Shown: positions 2-12,338, counted from the stretch's first letter. The stretch is DNA of 31,567 nt from an uncultured Candidatus Saccharibacteria bacterium (GCA_964530195.1 CAZGXQ010000030.1:1-31567); one strand, 5' to 3'. A program made the numbers and translations. Notes: a model not told the origin generated them from the sequence alone.

Positions 2-739
2 AATCTTTTTTGATTTTAACCTTTTTCTCTCAAGCATGTTAAGAAAATCAGTATTACCTCCAAAATTCAATTGATAAGATCTATCAATAATTACACCCCT
101 TTGGGTAAAAAGGTGGCACAATGTCCTATGGACAATCGTTGCTCCAACTTGGGATTTAATATCATCTCCAATACAAGGTAAATTTTTCTTTTCGAATTTT
201 TCAGCCCATTTTTTATCTGAAACTATAAAAACAGGCATGCAATTAATAAAAGCGCACCCTGCTTTTAGGGCACACTGTGCGTAATATTCTGTAGCCTTTT
301 GAGAACCAACTGGCAGATAATTGATTAAAATTTCAGCTCCTGATTTTTTCAATTCTTCAGCAACATTTACTGGTTTTTCTTTTGCTACAACAAAAGTTTT
401 ATCTTCTGGATACTCTTTCATGTGAGAGGCTATTCCATCCAAAACAGGTCCCATTTTTACTTTCACTCCAATTTTGGGAATATCTTTGCAAAAAATCTTT
501 GTACAATTTGGCGAAGCAAAAATTGCTTCAGAAATATCCTTCCCTACTTTTCTTTTGTCTACATCAAATGCTGCTACAACTTTAATATCTGAAATTTTGT
601 ATCCCCCTAAAACATTGTGCATCAATCCTGGAATTAATTCTTTTTCATCCTTTACATTTTTGTAATAAAAGAGACCTTGAATTAAAGCGGAAGCACAATT
701 TCCAACACCTACAATTGCAATTTTTATTTCTTTTGACAT
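2..739 (-). CDS. ino1: myo-inositol-1-phosphate (inositol-3-phosphate) synthase, 3' end runs off the window (absent from ORF track)
   Basis: Manual translation from ATG 739: MSKEIKIAIVGVGNCASALIQG (NAD Rossmann) ... VVAAFDVD..KVGKDISEAI ... INYLPVGS ... GDDIKSQVGATIVHR ... YQLNFGGNTDFLNM. Frame is open to the edge. Confidence 0.95.
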   Translation of the reverse strand, partial: MSKEIKIAIVGVGNCASALIQGLFYYKNVKDEKELIPGLMHNVLGGYKISDIKVVAAFDVDKRKVGKDISEAIFASPNCTKIFCKDIPKIGVKVKMGPVLDGIASHMKEYPEDKTFVVAKEKPVNVAEELKKSGAEILINYLPVGSQKATEYYAQCALKAGCAFINCMPVFIVSDKKWAEKFEKKNLPCIGDDIKSQVGATIVHRTLCHLFTQRGVIIDRSYQLNFGGNTDFLNMLERKRLKSKKI

Positions 740-3735: not shown

Positions 3736-4830
3736 TCAAAATTTTGAACAAATTTCAACGATTGCTAATTCTAAAGGTAATTGTAAAATTGGAGAAAATT
3801 TCATTTTGTTTTGAGCATCCAAAAACACAACAATCATTCTTCTTAAATTTTCTTCAGTAATTTTTTTTGATATCCTCTCAATTTTGTTTATTTCATCCTC
3901 TCCCCTACTTTCTGAAATCAAATCCTTACCCCCAAGTTTAAAAACTAAAATGTCTCTTAATAAAGAAATCAAATCCTTAGCAAATTCTTGAAGGTCTATT
4001 CCTCTTTCATAGATTGAATTTAAAAATTCAATAGCTTCTTTTAATTTTTTTTCAATTATTAAATCAAAAAAATTAAAAAGAATTTCACTTTCTACCAAAC
4101 CTAACAAATTTTTAACATCTTGAGCGCTAATTTCTCTTTCCCCAAAAAGAGCGAAAATTTGATCCAACAAGCTTTCGGCATCCCTTAAGGAACCTTCTGC
4201 TTTTTGAGCTAAAATTTCTAGAGCCTCTTTTTCTATTTTTATTCTTTCTTTTTCAACAATAAACTGGAGCTTTTTTAAAATTTCCCCCTTTGTTAATCTC
4301 CTAAAATCAAATCTTTGGCAACGAGAAAGAATTGTTGGAATCATCTTATGAACTTCAGTTGTTGCTAAAATGAAAATGGTATGAGCTGGAGGTTCTTCTA
4401 AAGTTTTTAATAAAGCATTTGCTGCCTCTTTTGTTAATTGATGAGCTTCGTCAATAATGTAAACTTTGTATTTTGATTTTGAGGGTACAAACCTTATTCC
4501 ATCTCTTAATTCTCTAACTTCATCAATTCCTCGATGAGAAGCAGCATCAATTTCAATCAAATCCATTGACCTTCCTTCTTGAATTTCAATACAAGATGTA
4601 CATTCACAACAAGGCTCAAACTCTCCCTCTTTTCTTTTTTGGCAATTTAGTGCCTTTGCAAAAAGACGAGCCAAGGTTGTTTTCCCAGAACCTTTAGGTC
4701 CATAAAATAAATAAGCGTGAGAAATTATTCCAGAAGCTATTGCATTAGAAAGAGTTCTGGCAATGTGTTCTTGCCCAATAAATTCTGAAAATTTTTGAGG
4801 TCTATATTTTCGATAAAATGCTTTGGTCAT
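3736..4830 (-). CDS. dnaX: DNA polymerase III subunit gamma/tau (short, 364 aa)
   Basis: YRKYRPQKFSE, Walker A GPKGSGKTT, Zn motif CQ...CCECTSC, EIDAASHRGIDEVR, IIDEAH, TILSRCQRF. Confidence 0.97.
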   Translation of the reverse strand: MTKAFYRKYRPQKFSEFIGQEHIARTLSNAIASGIISHAYLFYGPKGSGKTTLARLFAKALNCQKRKEGEFEPCCECTSCIEIQEGRSMDLIEIDAASHRGIDEVRELRDGIRFVPSKSKYKVYIIDEAHQLTKEAANALLKTLEEPPAHTIFILATTEVHKMIPTILSRCQRFDFRRLTKGEILKKLQFIVEKERIKIEKEALEILAQKAEGSLRDAESLLDQIFALFGEREISAQDVKNLLGLVESEILFNFFDLIIEKKLKEAIEFLNSIYERGIDLQEFAKDLISLLRDILVFKLGGKDLISESRGEDEINKIERISKKITEENLRRMIVVFLDAQNKMKFSPILQLPLELAIVEICSKF

Positions 4831-5447
4831 TTCCTGAACACAAAAATTTTATAACCAAAGAAATTCCAAAACATTACCACTAAAGTAGCAAAAATTTTGA
4901 TCAAATTCATTAGGGCTCCAGCTGAAATTTTAAAATAAGAAAGAAAAGTGGTTCCCAAAAAGACAATTGTTGAATTCAAAAAAAGACCAATTAAACTTAC
5001 AATTAAAAATACAATAAACTCTTTTTGGACCATTTTTGTTTCAATTTCAAATGTCCAAGCTTTGTTCAGAAAATAAGAATTTGTAGCAGCTAATAAAAAG
5101 GAAATAGCATTTAAAGGAATAATTTTCAAGCCCTTCACGATTCCAGTTACTGCCGATAAGAAATTTAAAGTTCCAATGTCAATTAAGGTATTTAAAACTC
5201 CAACTTCAGCAAATTTTGCAAATTGAAAAATTAAAGGGAAAAAAGAACGAAAAACTGAAGCAATTTTTATTCCAAGTAGAAAAATTAAAGGGAAAATAAA
5301 AAGAGAAAGAAAGCTAAATTTTTTTAAAATCAAAAATTTTTCGAATTCCCTAATTTTGGGGTTCAAAATAATAAAAAGAAAAAAAATAGCAGATAAGAAT
5401 CCACACAGTAAGGGAAAATAAACATCTTTTTTATTTTCAATTTTCAT
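4827..5447 (-). CDS. GtrA-like membrane protein (lipid-linked sugar flippase family) with N-terminal TM extension
   Basis: QFAKFAEVGVLNTLIDIG ... NSYFLNKAWTF ... WNFFGYKIFVF. Overlaps the dnaX start by ATGA. Confidence 0.85.
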   Translation of the reverse strand: MKIENKKDVYFPLLCGFLSAIFFLFIILNPKIREFEKFLILKKFSFLSLFIFPLIFLLGIKIASVFRSFFPLIFQFAKFAEVGVLNTLIDIGTLNFLSAVTGIVKGLKIIPLNAISFLLAATNSYFLNKAWTFEIETKMVQKEFIVFLIVSLIGLFLNSTIVFLGTTFLSYFKISAGALMNLIKIFATLVVMFWNFFGYKIFVFRK

Positions 5448-5976
5448 TTTTCTTTTTTGAAAACAACAAAAACAAACTTATTAAAATTAAGAAAACAAAA
5501 ATTCCTGCAATTCCAAAGTTTTTTTCTAATATAATTCCTGTTTTTGTGGCAAAGAAAACCAAAATTGAACTTAAAATTACTCCAGCGCTTATTGCAAAAA
5601 ATGCAACCTTAAAAGGGAGTCCTAATAAAAAGCTAATAATTGATCCGGCCCAAGCTCCAGTAAAGGGAAGAGGAATTCCTACAAATAAAGCTAACCCCAA
5701 AAGATTTTTAAAGCTTTTCGAGCCATATTTTTTTTGGAGCCTTGAGAAAAAGAAATCTGAGAAAGATTTCAAAAAAGAAACCCTTTGAAAAAGGGATGAT
5801 TTTAGAAAATTCAAAAAAATAAAAATTAAAGGCACAACTAAAACATTTCCTAAACTTGACCAAAAGAAAGCTTCAGAATCCTTTAATTTGAAAAAGACTA
5901 AAGAAAAAGGCAGAGCGCCTCTTACTTCTGCAATTGGCAACATTGCCATCAAAAAAGTTGAGATCCTAGGATCCAT
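5437..5976 (-). CDS. COG2426-type small multidrug export-like membrane protein
   Basis: [13 protein letters not shown] ... [18 protein letters not shown] motifs; several TM segments. Confidence 0.8.
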
Positions 5977-5984
5977 ATTTTGCT

Positions 5985-6030
5985 ATTTTACCAAGTTAAA
6001 ATGGACAAGTAAAGCCAAAGTTTATAAAAT
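5985..6030. promoter_or_regulatory. divergent leaderless-type promoters (COG2426 operon and cysS)
   Basis: Minus: TGG-TAAAAT (5993-5985), 8 nt before ATG 5976. Plus: TGGACA-17-TAAAAT (6002-6030), 7 nt before ATG 6038. Confidence 0.65.
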
Positions 6031-6037
6031 TAAATTG

Positions 6038-7420
6038 ATGATTAAATTTTTTAATACCCTATCTAGAAAAATTGAGGTTTTTAATCCATTAAAAAATAAA
6101 AAAGTTGGGCTTTATACTTGCGGTCCTACAGTATATTGGTTTGCACATATTGGAAATTTAAGAACTTATATTTTTGAGGATGTATTAAAAAGAGTCTTGC
6201 TCTATAATGGCTACAAAGTAAAGCATGTGATGAATATCACTGATGTTGGACATTTAGTTTCTGATGAAGATGTAGGAGAAGATAAAATTTTATTGGCGGC
6301 AGAAAGAGAAAAAAAATCGGCAAAAGAAATTGCTAAATTTTATGAGAAAGCTTTCAAGAAAGATTTGAGAAGATTGAACATTTTAGAGCCCGATGTTTGG
6401 GTAAGAGCTACCGAAACCATTAAAGATCAGATTGAGTTTATAAAAATTTTAGAAAAAAAAGGTTTTACTTATTTAACCGAAGACGGAGTTTACTTTGATA
6501 CCTCAAAATTGAAAAAATACGGAAGACTTTGGCCAAAGGGAATGAAAATTTTACCAGGAGCTAGAGTTGAAATTATTCCTGGAAAGAGAAATCCAACAGA
6601 TTTTGCTCTTTGGAAGTTTGCAAAAAAAAGAAAAGAAATGGTTTGGAATTCTCCCTGGGGAAGAGGTTTCCCTGGTTGGCATACAGAGTGCGTTGTTATG
6701 GCAAAAAATTTTTTGGGAGTGCCATTTGACATTCATTGTGGAGGAATAGATCACATTTTGATTCATCATACTAATGAAATTGCCCAAGCAGAAGCTGCTT
6801 TTTCAAAAATTTTGGCAAACTATTGGTTACATGGTGAGTTTTTATTAGTTGAAGGAAAAAAGATGGCAAAATCTTTAGGAAATGTTTTTACTTTAAATGA
6901 TTTGATACAAAAAGGATTCAATCCTCTCTCTTTCCGCTACTTTTGTCTTCAAGCTCATTATAGATCAAAACTAAATTTTACCTTCGAAGCTTTAAAAGCA
7001 AGCGAAAGCGCCCTAAAAAATCTTTATAGTTTAGTTTCTTTTTTAGCTTCACAAAAAAATAAAAAAATCAACCTCAAAAAAATACAAAAAGAAAAAGAAA
7101 GATTTTTAAAAATCGTTAACGAAGATTTGAATACTCCCCAGGCTTTAGCCTTAATGTGGGAAGTTTTGTTAAATAAATCTTTGAATGAAAATGAAAAATA
7201 TTTAATTTTAACTGATTTTGATAGAATTTTTGGATTGAATTTAGATAAAATTCCAGCCTTGAAGATTCCGAAAAAGATTGAAAAAATGGTTTCAAAAAGG
7301 GAAAAGTTGAGAAAAGAAAAAAAATGGGAAGAAGCAGATAAGATTAGAGAGAAAATAAAAGAAGCAGGATTTATAATAGAAGATACAGAAAGTGGACCAA
7401 AAATTAGAAAAATTTTTTAG
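6038..7420 (+). CDS. cysS: cysteine--tRNA ligase (start moved from 5888 to ATG 6038)
   Basis: [56 protein letters not shown]. The upstream 50 codons overlap the opposite-strand gene. Confidence 0.97.
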
Positions 7421-8558
7421 CCTTTTCTTTCAAACAAAAGTCATAAAATTCAAGAACTTTTTGCGCAATTTTTTCAAAAGAATATTCCTTGGCTTCTTTT
7501 AAAGCTATTTTTCCCATTTTTTTTCTCAACTTTTCGTTTTTAATTAATATTTCTAAAGCCTTTGCCAATTCAAAATAGTTTTTGTTTTTGACCAAAATAC
7601 CTCCTTTTTTGTTTTTTAAAAATTCCTTGTAACCTTCGTTTGCAAAAGCTACAACCGGTTTTTGGCAAGCCATAGCTTCCAATAAAACAATTCCAAAGCT
7701 TTCACCAAAAGTTGAAGGCGCACAAAAGACATCAGCAGAGTTATAAAAACTTGCTAAATTTTCTTTTTTCTCTCCAAGAAAAATAACATTTTTTAATTTC
7801 CTTTTTCCCACAAATGATAAACACTTTTCTTTTTCTGGCCCATCCCCTACTATCAAGAGCCTTATTTTTTCAGGATATTTTTTTTCCAAAATTGCAAAGG
7901 CTTTTAACAAATACAAAAGCCCCTTTCTTTTTTCAATCCTTCCAACAAATAAAATTGTTACCTTTTTGTCTTTAAAAGAAAGGGCTGGTGGAATTTTAGG
8001 ATTGAATTTTGAAATATCTATTCCATTTGGAATTACAATTTTTGGTTTTTTATATTCTTTGAAAAAATCTAAAGTTAATTTTGAAACACCAATAATTCCA
8101 TCTATCCTTAATTGACAGATTTTGTTTAGAAAAGAAATAAAAATTGGAAAACTTCTCAAAAATTGACTTCCCTTGAGATTTGAGTGGAAAGTTAAAATAT
8201 TTAAGGTTTTAAAAGAATAAGGAGAAAATAAAATTTGAGTTGTTCCAGGAAAGCTAAAATTATGAAAATGCAAAACATCAAACTTTTCTTTTTTTAGTAC
8301 ACTTTCAATTGAAAGAGGGTTAAAAGAAATATTTAAATCTGCTATTCCGCCACAAAATTCAATGGGAAAAGAGGTGCCCAATAAAATTATGTTTTTTTCA
8401 TATTTTTCGCTTTGTTTTCTTCGAGGGACTATAATTTTTGTTTCGATATTCCGTTTTTGATATTCTTTTTCTAATCCTAAAATATGATTTTTAACACCAC
8501 CTGGTCTTAAAAAAGAATGGGCAGAAATTAAAGCTACTTTCATAATTTTTGACACCAT
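7404..8558 (-). CDS. GT4-family glycosyltransferase, PimA (phosphatidylinositol alpha-mannosyltransferase)-like
   Basis: [55 protein letters not shown]4 is secure; PimA likeness is by recalled motif similarity only. Confidence 0.88.
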
Positions 8559-8568
8559 TTTTTTCCCT

Positions 8569-8581
8569 TGGTATTATTATA
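8569..8581. promoter_or_regulatory. overlapping divergent -10 elements for dnaB (leaderless) and the GT4 gene
   Basis: Plus TGG-TATTAT (8569-8577), 8 nt before ATG 8586. Minus TATAAT (8581-8576), 17 nt before ATG 8558 with AAGGGA between. Intergenic gap is 27 bp. Confidence 0.55.
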
Positions 8582-8585
8582 AACG

Positions 8586-11222
8586 ATGACAGATAATTCT
8601 CAAATTGAAAAGCTACCTCCTCAGTCAATTGAAGCAGAGAAATCTCTTTTGGGATGTTTGATGCTCGATAAAGACGCAATTTTAAAGGTAATTGATTTTC
8701 TCTCCCCTCAAGATTTTTATAAAAGCGCACACCAAGAAATATATTTAGCTTGTCAAGAACTTTTTGCTAAAGGAGAACCAATTGATATTCTCTCCCTTTC
8801 AAATAGATTAAAAGAAAAAGGAAAATTAGAAGAAGTTGGTGGAATAAGTTATTTAACTGAATTAGTAAACAGTGTTCCTACTGCAAGCCACGTTTTCCAT
8901 TATGCAAAAATTGTTCAAAAGAAGAGGATTTTGAGAGATTTAATTTCAGCTAGTCAAGAGATCGCACTTTTGGCTTATGATGAAAGTCAAGATCCTGAGA
9001 AAATTTTAGATGAGGCCGAAAAAAGAATTTTTAGTATAGCTCAAAAAGGAATTACTCAAAACTTTATTTCAGTAAAAGATACCTTAGAAGAAGCCTTTAA
9101 TAGAATTGACCAACTCTCAAAACATGGAGGGGGTTTAAGGGGTATTCCAACAGGATTTTCAGATTTAGATAACATTTTAGCCGGTCTTCAAAAATCAGAT
9201 ATGATTATTTTAGCAGCCAGACCTACATTAGGAAAAAGTGCCTTTGCTACTTGCATTGCGGCAAACGCTGCAATCAAATACAAGGTACCTGTTGGCATTT
9301 TCTCTTTAGAAATGTCAAGAGATCAGATTGTAGATAGATTAATTTCTATGGTTTCTGGCGTGGATTTGTGGAGAATAAGAACAGGAAGATTGTCAGCTGA
9401 AGGAGAAGATAATGATTTTACTAGAATTAGAAATGCATTAAGTGTGCTCGCTGAGGCCCCAATTTATATTGATGATGGAGCTGCAACTAATATTTTACAA
9501 ATGAAAGCAATGGCAAGAAGACTTCAGGCAGAAAAAGGTTTGGGGTTATTAATTATTGATTATCTTCAATTAATTCAACCCTTAAATCCCAAAGCCTCAC
9601 CAGTGGAACAGGTTTCTGAGAATTCAAGAGCATTAAAAGCTTTGGCAAAAGAACTTAACATTCCAGTATTAGTTATTTCTCAACTTTCAAGAGCAGTAGA
9701 ACAAAGATCACCTCAAATTCCAAGACTTGCAGATTTGAGACAGTCAGGATGTTTAGCAGGAGATACTCTTTTAACTAGAGCAGATACCGGAGAGAGAGTG
9801 AAAATAAAAGACTTAGTGGGAAAAAAAGATATTTTAATTTATACCCTTGATAAAGATTGGAAGTTGAGAGTTGGGAAAATTTCTAAAGTTTTTTGGAGCG
9901 GAAAAAAGAAGGTGTATTTATTAAAAACTCGAAGTGGATTTGAGATCAAAGCTTCAGCCAATCATCCTTTTAGAAAATTTGATGGTTGGTATCCCTTAGA
10001 AAAACTAAAAATTGGTGACAAAATTGCTACAGCTAAAAAACTCATTCCCTTTGCCCCTAAAAACGAACTTTCTGAAGATGAAATCATTCTCTTGGCCCAT
10101 CTTTTAGGTGATGGTTGTGTAGTTGAGCATCAACCTATTCATTATACGAGTAGCAGTTTAAGAAATATTCAAATAGTTGCAAAAGCTGCAAAGAAATTGT
10201 TTAAAATAGAACCTCGACTCGTCCGCCAGGAAAACTGGTATCATCTTTATCTTCCATCCCCATACCATTTAGCACCAGGAAAACATCACCCGATTATAAA
10301 TTGGTATGAAAAATTAGGATTGAAACCCGCTCATACATGGGAAAAGGTTATACCCGAAGCTGTTTTTACTCTCGATAAAAAGAAATTGGCTCTTTTTCTT
10401 TCTCATCTTTGGGCGACAGATGGAAATGTTAGCGAAAGAAAAATGAAAAAAAGAAAAGCATCTACCGCTTTATTTTACTCTACAACTAGTTTAAGAATGG
10501 CTCAAGATCTAAAAGAGCTTTTGTTAAGATTTGAAATTAGAAGTAGAATTTCTGAAAAGAAAAAAGTAGGTTATAAACCATGGTATATGGTTGAAATTCA
10601 GGGAAAAGAACATCAAATGAAATTTCTTAAAGAAATTGGAGTTTTTGGTCAAGAAAAGATTGTAACTAAATTGATAAAAAATCTTGAAAAAATTGTTCCA
10701 AATACCAATTTAGATGTAGTACCAAAAGAAGTTTGGTATTTAATCGATGAAATAAGAAGGAAAAAAGAATTAAGCTGGAAACAACTTTGCCAGAGTTTAG
10801 GAGTTGCTTTTGGAGGGAGGAATTCTTTATTCAAAAGAAATATCAGTTTCCAAAGATTAAAAATAATAGCTAATCATCTCTCTTCTCCAGAACTTTCAAA
10901 TTTAGCTGAAGGGGATGTTTTTTGGGACGAAATTGTTTCAATCAAACCTTTAAAAGTTGAGGATGTTTATGATCTTACTATTCCAGGAACTCATAACTTT
11001 TTGGCTAATAATATTATTGTTCACAATTCGATTGAACAAGATGCGGATGTGGTTTTGTTTATTTATCGTGAAGATTATTATCGTCCAGAAACTTCAAGGA
11101 AAGGAATTGCCGATATTATCGTGGCTAAACACCGAAATGGTCCTGTGGGAAGAGTTGAATTATACTTTGATGAAAGAACTGTAAGTTTTAGAGATTTAGA
11201 AAAAGGTTTTTTTGAAGAATAA
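8586..11222 (+). CDS. dnaB: replicative DNA helicase DnaB containing an intein
   Basis: LPPQSIEAEKSLLG, GIPTGF, ARPTLGKS, IIDYLQL, LSQ-type VISQLSRAVEQR, DLRQSG|intein|SIEQDAD, IIVAKHRNGPVG. The spliced product would be 452 aa. Confidence 0.98.
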   Translation: MTDNSQIEKLPPQSIEAEKSLLGCLMLDKDAILKVIDFLSPQDFYKSAHQEIYLACQELFAKGEPIDILSLSNRLKEKGKLEEVGGISYLTELVNSVPTASHVFHYAKIVQKKRILRDLISASQEIALLAYDESQDPEKILDEAEKRIFSIAQKGITQNFISVKDTLEEAFNRIDQLSKHGGGLRGIPTGFSDLDNILAGLQKSDMIILAARPTLGKSAFATCIAANAAIKYKVPVGIFSLEMSRDQIVDRLISMVSGVDLWRIRTGRLSAEGEDNDFTRIRNALSVLAEAPIYIDDGAATNILQMKAMARRLQAEKGLGLLIIDYLQLIQPLNPKASPVEQVSENSRALKALAKELNIPVLVISQLSRAVEQRSPQIPRLADLRQSGCLAGDTLLTRADTGERVKIKDLVGKKDILIYTLDKDWKLRVGKISKVFWSGKKKVYLLKTRSGFEIKASANHPFRKFDGWYPLEKLKIGDKIATAKKLIPFAPKNELSEDEIILLAHLLGDGCVVEHQPIHYTSSSLRNIQIVAKAAKKLFKIEPRLVRQENWYHLYLPSPYHLAPGKHHPIINWYEKLGLKPAHTWEKVIPEAVFTLDKKKLALFLSHLWATDGNVSERKMKKRKASTALFYSTTSLRMAQDLKELLLRFEIRSRISEKKKVGYKPWYMVEIQGKEHQMKFLKEIGVFGQEKIVTKLIKNLEKIVPNTNLDVVPKEVWYLIDEIRRKKELSWKQLCQSLGVAFGGRNSLFKRNISFQRLKIIANHLSSPELSNLAEGDVFWDEIVSIKPLKVEDVYDLTIPGTHNFLANNIIVHNSIEQDADVVLFIYREDYYRPETSRKGIADIIVAKHRNGPVGRVELYFDERTVSFRDLEKGFFEE
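9750..11027 (+). mobile_element. intein (426 aa) with LAGLIDADG homing endonuclease at the RESG/SIEQ DnaB site
   Basis: Begins CLAGDT, block B ASANHPF, blocks C and E LLAHLLGDG and FLSHLWATDG, ends HNFLANNIIVHN followed by Ser+1. Confidence 0.96.
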
Positions 11223-11224
11223 AA

Positions 11225-11833
11225 ATGTACCCTCCTTCGATTCAAAAATTAATTAATTTTTTTTCTGAATTTCCTGGAGTAGGTCCAAGAACCGCTACTC
11301 GCTTTGTTTTTCATTTGTTAAAAAAGGAAAAATCAAAAATAAAAGAATTAGCTTTAGCTATTTTAGATCTAAAGAAAAAAATAAAATTTTGCGAATTTTG
11401 TTTCAAACCCTTTGAGCCGAAAGAAAGCCCAAATCAAATGCTTTGTGAAATTTGTTCAAATCCTCTTCGCGAGAAAAGTTTATTATGTGTTGTTGCAAAT
11501 GAAATTGATTTAGAAGCGATAGAAAAAACAAAAAAATACAAAGGAAGGTATTTTATATTAGGAGGAACAATTCCAGCTTTAAAAAAAGCTGATTTTGAGA
11601 AATTAAGAATTAAGGAATTAGAAAAAAGGCTCAAACATAATCCAGAAATTGAAGAAATAATTTTAGCCTTTAATCCAAATACGGAAGGAGAAGCCACAAC
11701 TTTATATTTGGAAAGAATTTTAAAACCTTATAATAAAAAAATTACAAAACTTGCTAAAGGATTGCCTATTGGAGGAGAAATTGAATACGCTGACGAAGAA
11801 ACCCTTTCTTTCGCTATTTTGAAAAGAAGTTAA
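11225..11833 (+). CDS. recR: recombination mediator RecR
   Basis: FPGVGPRTATRF, C4 zinc finger CEFC...CEIC, Toprim IILAFNPNTEGEAT, LAKGLPIGGEIEYAD. Confidence 0.96.
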   Translation: MYPPSIQKLINFFSEFPGVGPRTATRFVFHLLKKEKSKIKELALAILDLKKKIKFCEFCFKPFEPKESPNQMLCEICSNPLREKSLLCVVANEIDLEAIEKTKKYKGRYFILGGTIPALKKADFEKLRIKELEKRLKHNPEIEEIILAFNPNTEGEATTLYLERILKPYNKKITKLAKGLPIGGEIEYADEETLSFAILKRS

Positions 11834-11872
11834 ACGCTCTTTTTGTATTTTTGAGTTAAAGCAGTGCACTCC

Positions 11873-11901
11873 TTGACAAATTTTAAAAGATTTTTTATAA
11901 T
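11873..11901 (+). promoter_or_regulatory. perfect-consensus sigma70 promoter of the 11992 orphan
   Basis: TTGACA (11873-78), 17 nt, TATAAT (11896-901). Confidence 0.85.
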
Positions 11902-11925
11902 TAATATAGCTCTTTTACAAGAAAA

Positions 11926-11978
11926 CCCCTTAAGTCCTACCCAAAAAAGTAGGCGCCTGACCGAAAGGCAGGCAGGGG
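11926..11978 (+). ncRNA. candidate structured 5' leader (three-way junction); no known family assigned
   Basis: P1 CCCCT/AGGGG, P2 CCTAC/GTAGG, P3 GCCTG(A)CC-GAAA-GGCAGGC, immediately before SD AGGAGGT. A GC-rich island in very AT-rich DNA. Confidence 0.5.
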
Positions 11979-11991
11979 GAAGGAGGTAAAA

Positions 11992-12294
11992 ATGAGCAAC
12001 TTGAAAGAAGAGTTTGAGAGGTATCTTAAGAAAAACGGATTTCAAATTAGCTCGTTTCTTCTTATACTTGAGGACACGGATTCTGGCTCTGGAATTTCGG
12101 TATTTAGTTTCATTAAGGCGTTATTATCCCAATATTCGATGGGGAAAATTATGGAACTAATTGGAGCTTTAGTAGTCTATCATTTTGCAGAGATCAGGCT
12201 AGAAAACAAGGACTTGAAAATTTTGTTGACGCAAGAAGGAAAAAATGCAGTAGCTAAACTCAAAAGCTTAATGGGCCACAAACCTGTAAAGTAA
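11992..12294 (+). CDS. orphan protein, 100 aa, possible degenerate winged-helix C-terminus
   Basis: SD AGGAGGT 4 nt before ATG; own promoter and terminator. Tail ELIGALVVYHFAEIRLENKDLKILLTQEGKNAVAKL resembles the MarR/PadR wing ('LT..G'). Confidence 0.75.
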   Translation: MSNLKEEFERYLKKNGFQISSFLLILEDTDSGSGISVFSFIKALLSQYSMGKIMELIGALVVYHFAEIRLENKDLKILLTQEGKNAVAKLKSLMGHKPVK

Positions 12295-12308
12295 GAAAAG
12301 TTTTTGAG

Positions 12309-12338
12309 GACCTGAGCGGAGCTTGCTCAGGTCTTTTT
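12309..12338 (+). terminator. intrinsic terminator
   Basis: GACCTGAGC-7nt-GCTCAGGTC (9-bp perfect stem) plus TTTTT. Confidence 0.85.

Follow-up and report, generated by a model that had tools for sequence, protein, structure and literature searches.

The window analysed here (the whole stretch of DNA, GCA_964530195.1 CAZGXQ010000030.1:1-31567; 31,567 nucleotides from an uncultured Candidatus Saccharibacteria bacterium, positions being counted from its first letter) contained genes for DnaB (with an intein), RecR, and a protein of 100 amino acids, together with those for L21, RmuC, and a Na/Ca exchanger on the opposite strand. A compact unit was found between the stop codons of recR (11833) and rplU (12358): a promoter, an mRNA leader of 85 nt, a Shine-Dalgarno (SD) sequence, the open reading frame (ORF) of 100 amino acids, and a terminator. 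On balance, we consider it probable that this leader belongs to an mRNA-leader motif that is widespread and conserved in sequence, accompanies genes of phages and mobile elements, and acts in cis on translation initiation. The motif is referred to as the UAAG/CCUGACC leader, a working name given in this analysis.

A preliminary description of the locus had proposed a novel structured leader abutting the SD sequence. This reading was largely right: the promoter, helices, SD sequence, and ATG codon were all recovered at their positions, and the structured leader was borne out by its fold, its homologues, and their covariation, with the anatomy corrected to a conserved core of two helices and a private insertion. 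The three proposed helices lie within a 53-nt segment (11926-11978) of the leader, and RNAfold reproduced exactly this three-way junction (-28.6 kcal/mol, z = -2.67), with 1 of 200 shuffled sequences folding as well. Thermodynamics alone was weak evidence, because the reverse strand folded about equally well. In a window that was otherwise AT-rich (31% GC over 31.5 kb), the leader was the most GC-rich 50-nt stretch (0.60, versus 0.56 for the two tRNA genes).

The exact 17-mer CCTGACCGAAAGGCAGG was found at 18 loci in IMG/VR, five of which shared a wider layout in spite of unrelated flanks: a short helix, (G/A)UAAG-N, the hairpin, CA, the complement of the helix, AGGAG, and a start codon. Relaxed patterns, in which the upper hairpin or the loop was freed or 1-31 nt were allowed after TAAG, gave matches in about 22 contigs from IMG/VR and in at least 70 from metagenomes, with GC contents of 28-64%. 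In total, the family was recovered from at least about 100 contigs of viral or metagenomic origin. The consensus of the family was P1 (3-6 bp), R, UAAG, N, CCYG, A, CC, loop, GG, CRGG, CA, and P1'; the conserved fold consisted of a short variable P1 helix, an asymmetric internal loop (R-UAAG-N on the 5' side and CA on the 3' side), a 4-bp CCYG/CRGG stem, and a bulged A with a short capped upper stem. When a covariance model built from the family copies without the window (referred to as R1) was applied to these contigs, it revealed additional copies that had diverged further. Almost no variation was seen in UAAG, in the bulged A, in the two C-G pairs that lead the stem, or in the 3' CA (for which CG, UG, or CU was a rare substitute), and UAAG also recurred in the extra copies found by R1. 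Loops of 3-6 nt were found in these R1 copies, together with a 29-nt apical extension in the second copy of contig L201 and 3 nt at N in L235. The GAAA tetraloop, which the preliminary description had pointed out, proved not to be essential: GCAA, GAGA, AAAU, UAAU, and replacements of 5-29 nt were present in relatives. The core sequence of the family was kept in copies from groundwater, sediment, fermentation, wastewater, and hot-spring sources, and no convincing match was found among 50,697 GenBank records of cultured phages. A different near-perfect palindrome, GCCTGCCTGACCGGCAGGCAGGC, was noted in five unrelated contigs (L167, L189, L215, L250, and L264), without UAAG, P1, or an SD sequence.

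P1 was a fair structural test, because it was never included in any search pattern. In 74 distinct copies, the inner four P1 pairs were paired in 59-88%, with 5-6 pair types each, and the covariation score of P1 was 0.228, versus 0.081 +/- 0.010 after shuffling (0 of 500 as high) and at most 0.091 when the partner was slid. The pairs of the hairpin changed on both sides and never on one only, the sole break being a single non-standard cell in one alignment. Compensated lower stems were CCCG/CGGG (second copy of L224) and CCUU/AAGG (second copy of L164), and compensated upper stems were GC/GC, CU/AG, and GUA/UAC. A scan with CCCG/CGGG gave 27 matches, including 10 complete family members with P1, an SD sequence, and a start codon in further contigs; overall, this lower stem occurred in at least 11 copies. 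Covariation among homologues, which the preliminary description had looked to as a check, was strong in P1, and the hairpin showed compensatory changes. Furthermore, G-U and U-G pairs occurred in P1, and these fit an RNA of this strand because the other strand would have A-C mismatches.

The window copy was compared with this family. R1 matched positions 11956-11974 (26.2 bits, E = 1.2e-5), and the alignment was only local because 20 nt (11936-11955) separate N from the hairpin. CCCC (11926-11929) and GGGG (11975-11978) formed P1 in the dominant register, one nucleotide before UAAG and directly after CA; UAAG and CA were both present, and the R position was occupied by U, a minority state in the 74-copy alignment. 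The SD sequence began 2 nt after P1 and the ATG codon lay 17 nt after A11974, the mode of the family, and a promoter (12/12) was located 29 nt upstream of UAAG ahead of a small orphan gene, as was often the case among other copies. When positions 11936-11955 were left out, the window leader was nearly identical to the best-scoring copy, L224. A hairpin-sized insertion at N was seen in the window only: L235 had two extra nucleotides there, and among the long-gap matches of the variable-gap pattern the window alone was genuine, the others being TAAGs that occurred by chance. The window leader is a family member with an extra hairpin at N, by which the two-helix fold becomes a three-way junction and, if this is true, the window copy would show that the fold tolerates a whole extra helix at this position. 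From the three-way junction of the preliminary description, P1 and the bulged-A hairpin were retained as family helices, whereas the CCUAC/GUAGG helix was a window-only insertion, relatives having two helices. Similarly, the cores of P1 and of the third helix (the bulged-A hairpin) stood, whereas the proposed terminal pairs U11930-A11974 and G11955-C11973 fell at the R, N, and CA positions and were not conserved pairs.

The inserted hairpin (CCUAC, 11936-11940; GUAGG, 11949-11953) had a predicted pair probability of 0.99 at 37 C and 0.46 at 77 C. An outer helix (P0) was also predicted from the first 10 nt of the transcript, GCUCUUUUAC, which are complementary to GUAAAA..GAGC across the start codon; P0 would enclose the whole leader, with a predicted pair probability (11918-11986) of 0.97 at 37 C and 0.83 at 60 C, and was seen by prediction in the window only, not in relatives. 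The transcription start is expected at about 11908 from the position of the promoter. The features of the unit are listed in Table 1.

Table 1. Features of the leader and of the one-gene unit in the window.
Feature	Position	Strand	Remarks
Sigma-70-type promoter	11873..11901	+	TTGACA 11873-11878, 17-nt spacer, TATAAT 11896-11901; 12/12 match
Predicted outer helix P0, 5' strand	11909..11918	+	Pairs with 11986-11997 spanning the start codon; RNAfold partition function
P1, 5' strand (CCCC)	11926..11929	+	Complementary to 11975-11978; U11930 at the unpaired R position of the family
Internal loop UAAG (11931-11934) and variable position N (U11935)	11931..11935	+	
Window-specific insertion at N	11936..11955	+	Hairpin CCUAC-CCAAAAAA-GUAGG (11936-11953) and CG (11954-11955); P2 of the preliminary description
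Family core hairpin	11956..11972	+	CCUG lower stem, bulged A11960, CC upper stem, GAAA loop, GG, CAGG; sequence CCUGACCGAAAGGCAGG
3' internal-loop dinucleotide CA	11973..11974	+	Conserved in the family; fixed by the search patterns
P1, 3' strand (GGGG)	11975..11978	+	Pairs with 11926-11929; G11979 spare
SD sequence AGGAGG	11981..11986	+	2 nt after P1
Downstream ORF, orphan	11992..12294	+	100 amino acids; ATG 17 nt after CA
Intrinsic terminator	12306..12336	+	14-pair stem, then T run; ends the one-gene unit, common to convergent rplU

All copies of the family were on the strand of the next gene. The distance from CA to the start codon was 15-20 nt in about 80% of 92 copies (mode, 17 nt), and a gap of 0-3 nt separated P1 from the SD sequence in 44 of 57 copies. 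Of 88 copies, 18 had a promoter with a match at 11 or more of 12 positions located 8-50 nt ahead of UAAG; even a weaker promoter pair occurred in only 3.7% of random windows. This placement bears on a DNA-level element, namely a single-stranded DNA hairpin, a recombination or replication site, or a REP-like dispersed palindrome, which would lie upstream of genes by chance. We regard such an element as highly improbable: the orientation was always that of the downstream gene at a fixed 15-20 nt from the start codon, the G-U and U-G pairs of P1 would be mismatched on the other strand, and the window contained neither a second copy of the leader (by sequence search and R1) nor convincing flanking repeats marking an insertion. 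Its attraction lies in the occurrence of the motif on mobile elements (one of the contigs encodes a type IV coupling protein), in the genes of conjugative-leading-region type after some copies, and in the comparable folding of the reverse strand; other leading-region motifs, radC and STAXI, are suspected of acting as DNA. The one copy in 31.5 kb, the lack of any copy in 66 Patescibacteria recR loci (330 kb; nhmmer and R1), and the fixed strand and distance also spoke against one member of a dispersed palindromic repeat, which the preliminary description had kept in view.

Twister-P5 ribozymes were found directly beside some copies, with scores of 41-66 bits: L083 2642-2694 and 2937-2999, L087 243-295, L166 3440-3500, L248 768-825, and L274 359-414. 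Most of these end 2-8 nt before a leader copy, and an end at this distance before P1 was found in at least four distinct contexts (L083/L087/L217, L166, L248, and L274). Some contigs contained two or three copies, each ahead of its own ORF, and L224 had three, including intercistronic ones. The motif might in this light represent a new class of self-cleaving ribozyme, or else a hairpin recognised by an endoribonuclease, that processes polycistronic mobile-element transcripts just upstream of each cistron: it shares the niche of twister ribozymes, recurs within contigs and between cistrons, approaches the smallest ribozymes in size and number of conserved nucleotides, and is as unspecific in its gene associations as twister and hammerhead. 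However, with a twister 2-8 nt upstream, a second cleavage site would be redundant, and many copies lie 8-50 nt from a promoter, where there is little to remove. The tight spacing to the SD sequence and start codon is not ribozyme-like, one internal loop and one bulge offer little tertiary structure, and no hammerhead, twister, twister-sister, pistol, hatchet, HDV, or hairpin model matched at the motif itself, the twister-P5 matches adjoining it. A processing function of this kind was thus judged improbable.

The proteins encoded downstream of the copies were short (median, 90 amino acids) and unrelated, 73 proteins falling into 65 clusters. A Pfam match was obtained for only 7 of 61: ERF, ArdC-N, RadC-like JAB, DUF932, pentapeptide repeats, phiEco32-like ligase, and DUF6429. 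These families are typical of the early or leading regions of mobile elements. The carriers included IMG/VR contigs, the contig with the type IV coupling protein (L214), and a bacterial chromosome (L195). In the latter (4575-9930), the gene order was S5, L15 (with no L30 between), SecY, Adk, Map, the motif with an orphan of 196 amino acids, and RuvX, and this position between map and ruvX parallels the insertion among housekeeping genes in the window. Contig L224 (2471-12054) also encoded three paralogous repeat proteins of 497-614 amino acids (phrog_9049/9262), an ATPase, and an HNH endonuclease.

In the window, the ORF of 100 amino acids had no homologue but itself among 5.8 billion clustered proteins or 1.84 billion representatives (HMMER), and no Pfam match. 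Its single-sequence AF2 model, in which the topology hinted at helix-helix-helix-hairpin-helix, was unfit for a fold search because the pLDDT was only 53. The closest relatives of RecR (64% identity or less) were all from metagenome-assembled genomes of Patescibacteria (Paceibacterota, Nealsonbacteria, and Wildermuthbacteria), and in most of the 66 recR loci recR was directly followed by convergent rplU. Since the two genes are directly adjacent in most relatives, none of which has the RNA, the unit of promoter, leader, orphan, and terminator is a lineage-specific insertion. It looks like a gene cassette of mobile-element type inserted between recR and rplU, and the orphan ORF is probably to be recast as an acquired cassette with an expression signal of this type.

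The stretch was also present in metagenome runs from hot springs and sediment. In three other assemblies of the same organism, only 7 positions differed in 4-6 kb, and strain variation was therefore unusable for covariation. Two of the only 7 differences in 5.5 kb of one of these assemblies (locus L002) fell in the leader, C11973G (the C of the conserved CA) and A11980G, and represent either real variation or an assembly error in the G run. At positions 11481, 11494, 11500, and 11510 in recR, the window had T and all three other assemblies had C. The intein in dnaB (8586-11222) contained a LAGLIDADG homing-endonuclease domain (Pfam Intein_splicing and LAGLIDADG_3 between two DnaB_C halves). 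More GC-rich patches were noted near the start of the window (96-301 and 808-859), together with a GC-rich hairpin, GCCGGGCGAAAAACCCGGC, with no Rfam match. Strongly GC-rich islands with inverted repeats occurred right after recR in four Patescibacteria relatives (L006, about 60-330 nt after recR, L047, L054, and L055), also with no Rfam match, and may be unannotated structured RNAs.

With regard to function, we infer a translational role for the UAAG/CCUGACC leader. The motif would be transcribed as part of the mRNA, with the 3' strand of P1 ending 0-3 nt before the SD sequence, and would influence in cis how translation of the small gene downstream is initiated. A docking surface for a conserved partner (the 30S platform, a host protein, or a small ligand) would be provided by the conserved loop and bulge, and the folded P1 would hold its C-rich 5' strand away from the SD sequence. 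Because P1 abuts the SD sequence, the helix of SD and anti-SD sequences could stack on P1. About 17 nt remained constant across GC contents of 28-64%, the sequence of P1 was free, and insertions were tolerated at N and at the apex; these properties together point to a specific partner for the loop-and-bulge surface, and to more than a mere stabilising hairpin. The mode of action may be either that of a constitutive enhancer or that of a switch gated by a factor or ligand.

Other modes of action offered by the preliminary description fared less well. Pairing of TCCT (11935-11938) with AGGA of the SD sequence, suggested as a switch, reached a predicted probability of 0.13-0.15, and only at 77 C; this switch is unsupported because TCCT is within the window-specific insertion and the predicted pairing is low. 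An independent small RNA is not supported, given the lack of a terminator between 11978 and the ORF (the terminator was found only at 12306-12336), the fixed distance to the start codon across the family, and the absence of an Rfam match. A thermosensor is not in keeping with the same sequence in contigs from groundwater, sediment, fermentation, and wastewater, or with the SD sequence in the window, which was predicted to be unpaired at 37-60 C.

Several points weigh against the proposed cis-acting role in translation initiation. Most sequences were gathered by patterns that fix UAAG, CCUGACC, and GGCAGGCA, and the conservation at these positions is therefore partly by construction; the evidence independent of the patterns consists of the extra copies found by the model and the CCCG scan. 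The inserted hairpin and putative P0 are products of folding prediction alone. The modelled accessibility of the SD sequence was slightly below that with shuffled leaders (0.567 versus 0.620, p = 0.009), and a simple insulator that exposes the SD sequence was therefore not supported and was rejected. No mimicry of rRNA or tRNA from E. coli was detected (R1 on the E. coli rrnH operon, 7.6 bits or less), no RNA run with the window or L224 was found, and contigs from wastewater RNA runs weakly covered a relative of L233 only, without transcript ends. No description of the 15-17-nt core sequence or the family was found in the literature, the RAGATH list in the supplement of Weinberg et al. 2015 being outside the comparison and possibly already listing it. 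Finally, where the SD sequence was predicted to be paired, its partner was the C-rich 5' strand of P1, and this pairing fits a switch as well as an enhancer.

This last point touches on a riboswitch for a small molecule or ion, in which the internal loop and bulged A would form the ligand pocket. By stabilising P1, a ligand (or another factor) could free the SD sequence from the 5' strand of P1 and act as an ON switch, and early genes would be timed to a general host signal. The architecture resembles that of a small aptamer in that the core is conserved, P1 varies and covaries, and insertions are tolerated at the apex and in the loop; the motif is also located at the SD sequence, for which the 5' strand of P1 is the predicted competitor. 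On the other hand, no metabolic theme links the downstream genes, which are unrelated orphans, there is no overlap between P1 and the SD sequence, no riboswitch family in Rfam 15 was matched, and a selective pocket would usually call for more than a fold of about 35 nt with a single internal loop and a single bulge. We therefore regard a riboswitch as rather unlikely.

More tentatively than the cis-acting translational role itself, the motif may be an undescribed functional RNA class that phages, conjugative elements, and some Patescibacteria place before early or accessory genes: a riboswitch of very small size, a new self-cleaving ribozyme that partners twister, or an enhancer of translation that docks on the ribosome, with P1 stacking on the helix of SD and anti-SD sequences; we see this as possible and somewhat doubtful. 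Should the family be undescribed, it would represent a compact RNA element: about 35-40 nt long and always held at the ribosome-binding site, it keeps about 17 nt constant across mobile elements of very different base composition. It would then open a new way to study how many small orphan genes of phages and conjugative elements are driven or timed, and provide a marker for mobile-element-type cassettes in poorly understood genomes such as those of Patescibacteria; as a natural counterpart of engineered ribozyme-hairpin insulators, it would also be a candidate part for synthetic biology.

The family is absent from Rfam 15. With its 4227 models at gathering thresholds, only the two tRNAs were detected in the whole window, and at E <= 10 the region 11780-12080 gave chance matches only (U7, LhrC, and mir-7). 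None of the known riboswitch classes (TPP, SAM, c-di-GMP, c-di-AMP, preQ1, fluoride, and all others in Rfam 15) matched this region or a canonical copy at E <= 10, and the preliminary description, which had failed to match the leader to named riboswitch, ribozyme, or SRP families, was confirmed on this point across all the models. The best Rfam alignment of the canonical copy was with DUF3800-X (RF02984; 12.9 bits versus a gathering threshold of 38.2, E = 3.8), which has a similar outer helix, a 5' internal loop GUAAG, a second helix N-CC-U ... A-GG-N, and a very short 3' side of the loop. It differs in that about 35 additional nucleotides are enclosed by its second helix and in that its 8-bp stem lacks the bulged A. 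Furthermore, DUF3800-X is defined by neighbouring DUF3800 genes, and this domain was found in 0 of the 61 proteins encoded downstream of family copies (downstream genes only). UAA recurs in DUF3800-associated motifs (Weinberg et al. 2017, PMC5737381). The ylbH leader (RF00516) is arranged similarly to the window version with its extra hairpin: P1, C-UAA-G, an internal hairpin, ..GGCA, P1', and AGGAG immediately after. However, its score was at chance level (8.4 bits versus a gathering threshold of 50, E = 9.8), it has no CCUG-A-CC hairpin, and it is restricted to rsmD leaders of Bacillus.

The operator of the MS2/R17 coat protein is a short hairpin in which two pairs separate a single bulged A from a four-base loop, located at the translation start region, and the UAAG/CCUGACC leader shares this bulge and placement. 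By analogy with the bulged-A operators of RNA phages or with boxB/N, the leader might be the operator for an RNA-binding repressor or activator encoded by the element itself. The topology and the sequence-conserved stem would suit such an operator, and several copies per element would make a regulon. The known examples differ from the leader, the carriers of which are DNA elements, in that it has a free loop, an extra UAAG internal loop with P1, and no known cognate protein; in addition, the copies in the window and L195 are single ones in bacterial chromosomes without a co-occurring element gene, and no protein family was common to the examined loci. An operator of this kind appears very unlikely, and a host-encoded protein partner would fall under the cis-acting translational role preferred here.

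In RiboJ, a synthetic insulator, a self-cleaving ribozyme is directly followed by a hairpin and then by the SD sequence, and 5' stabiliser hairpins are known on Gram-positive and phage mRNAs. The order of twister-P5, the motif, and the SD sequence in L083/L087, L166, L248, and L274 is similar to that of RiboJ, and the location of the motif near the 5' end of many transcripts is similar to that of stabiliser hairpins. Insulator and stabiliser hairpins need no particular sequence, whereas the leader family keeps about 17 nt, and the modelled accessibility of its SD sequence was not raised. The radC and STAXI motifs, reportedly described by Weinberg and co-workers in 2010, are conserved structured motifs that precede genes of mobile elements encoding anti-restriction, single-strand-binding, RadC, and integrase proteins, and the annotated genes after the leader motif were of the same kind (ArdC-N, RadC, ERF, and DUF932). 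They differ from the leader in structure and are not at a fixed distance from the SD sequence, and their Rfam models did not match the window or canonical copies. With none matching by model, the nearest analogues of the UAAG/CCUGACC leader by context are the radC and STAXI motifs and the ribozyme-plus-hairpin insulators.

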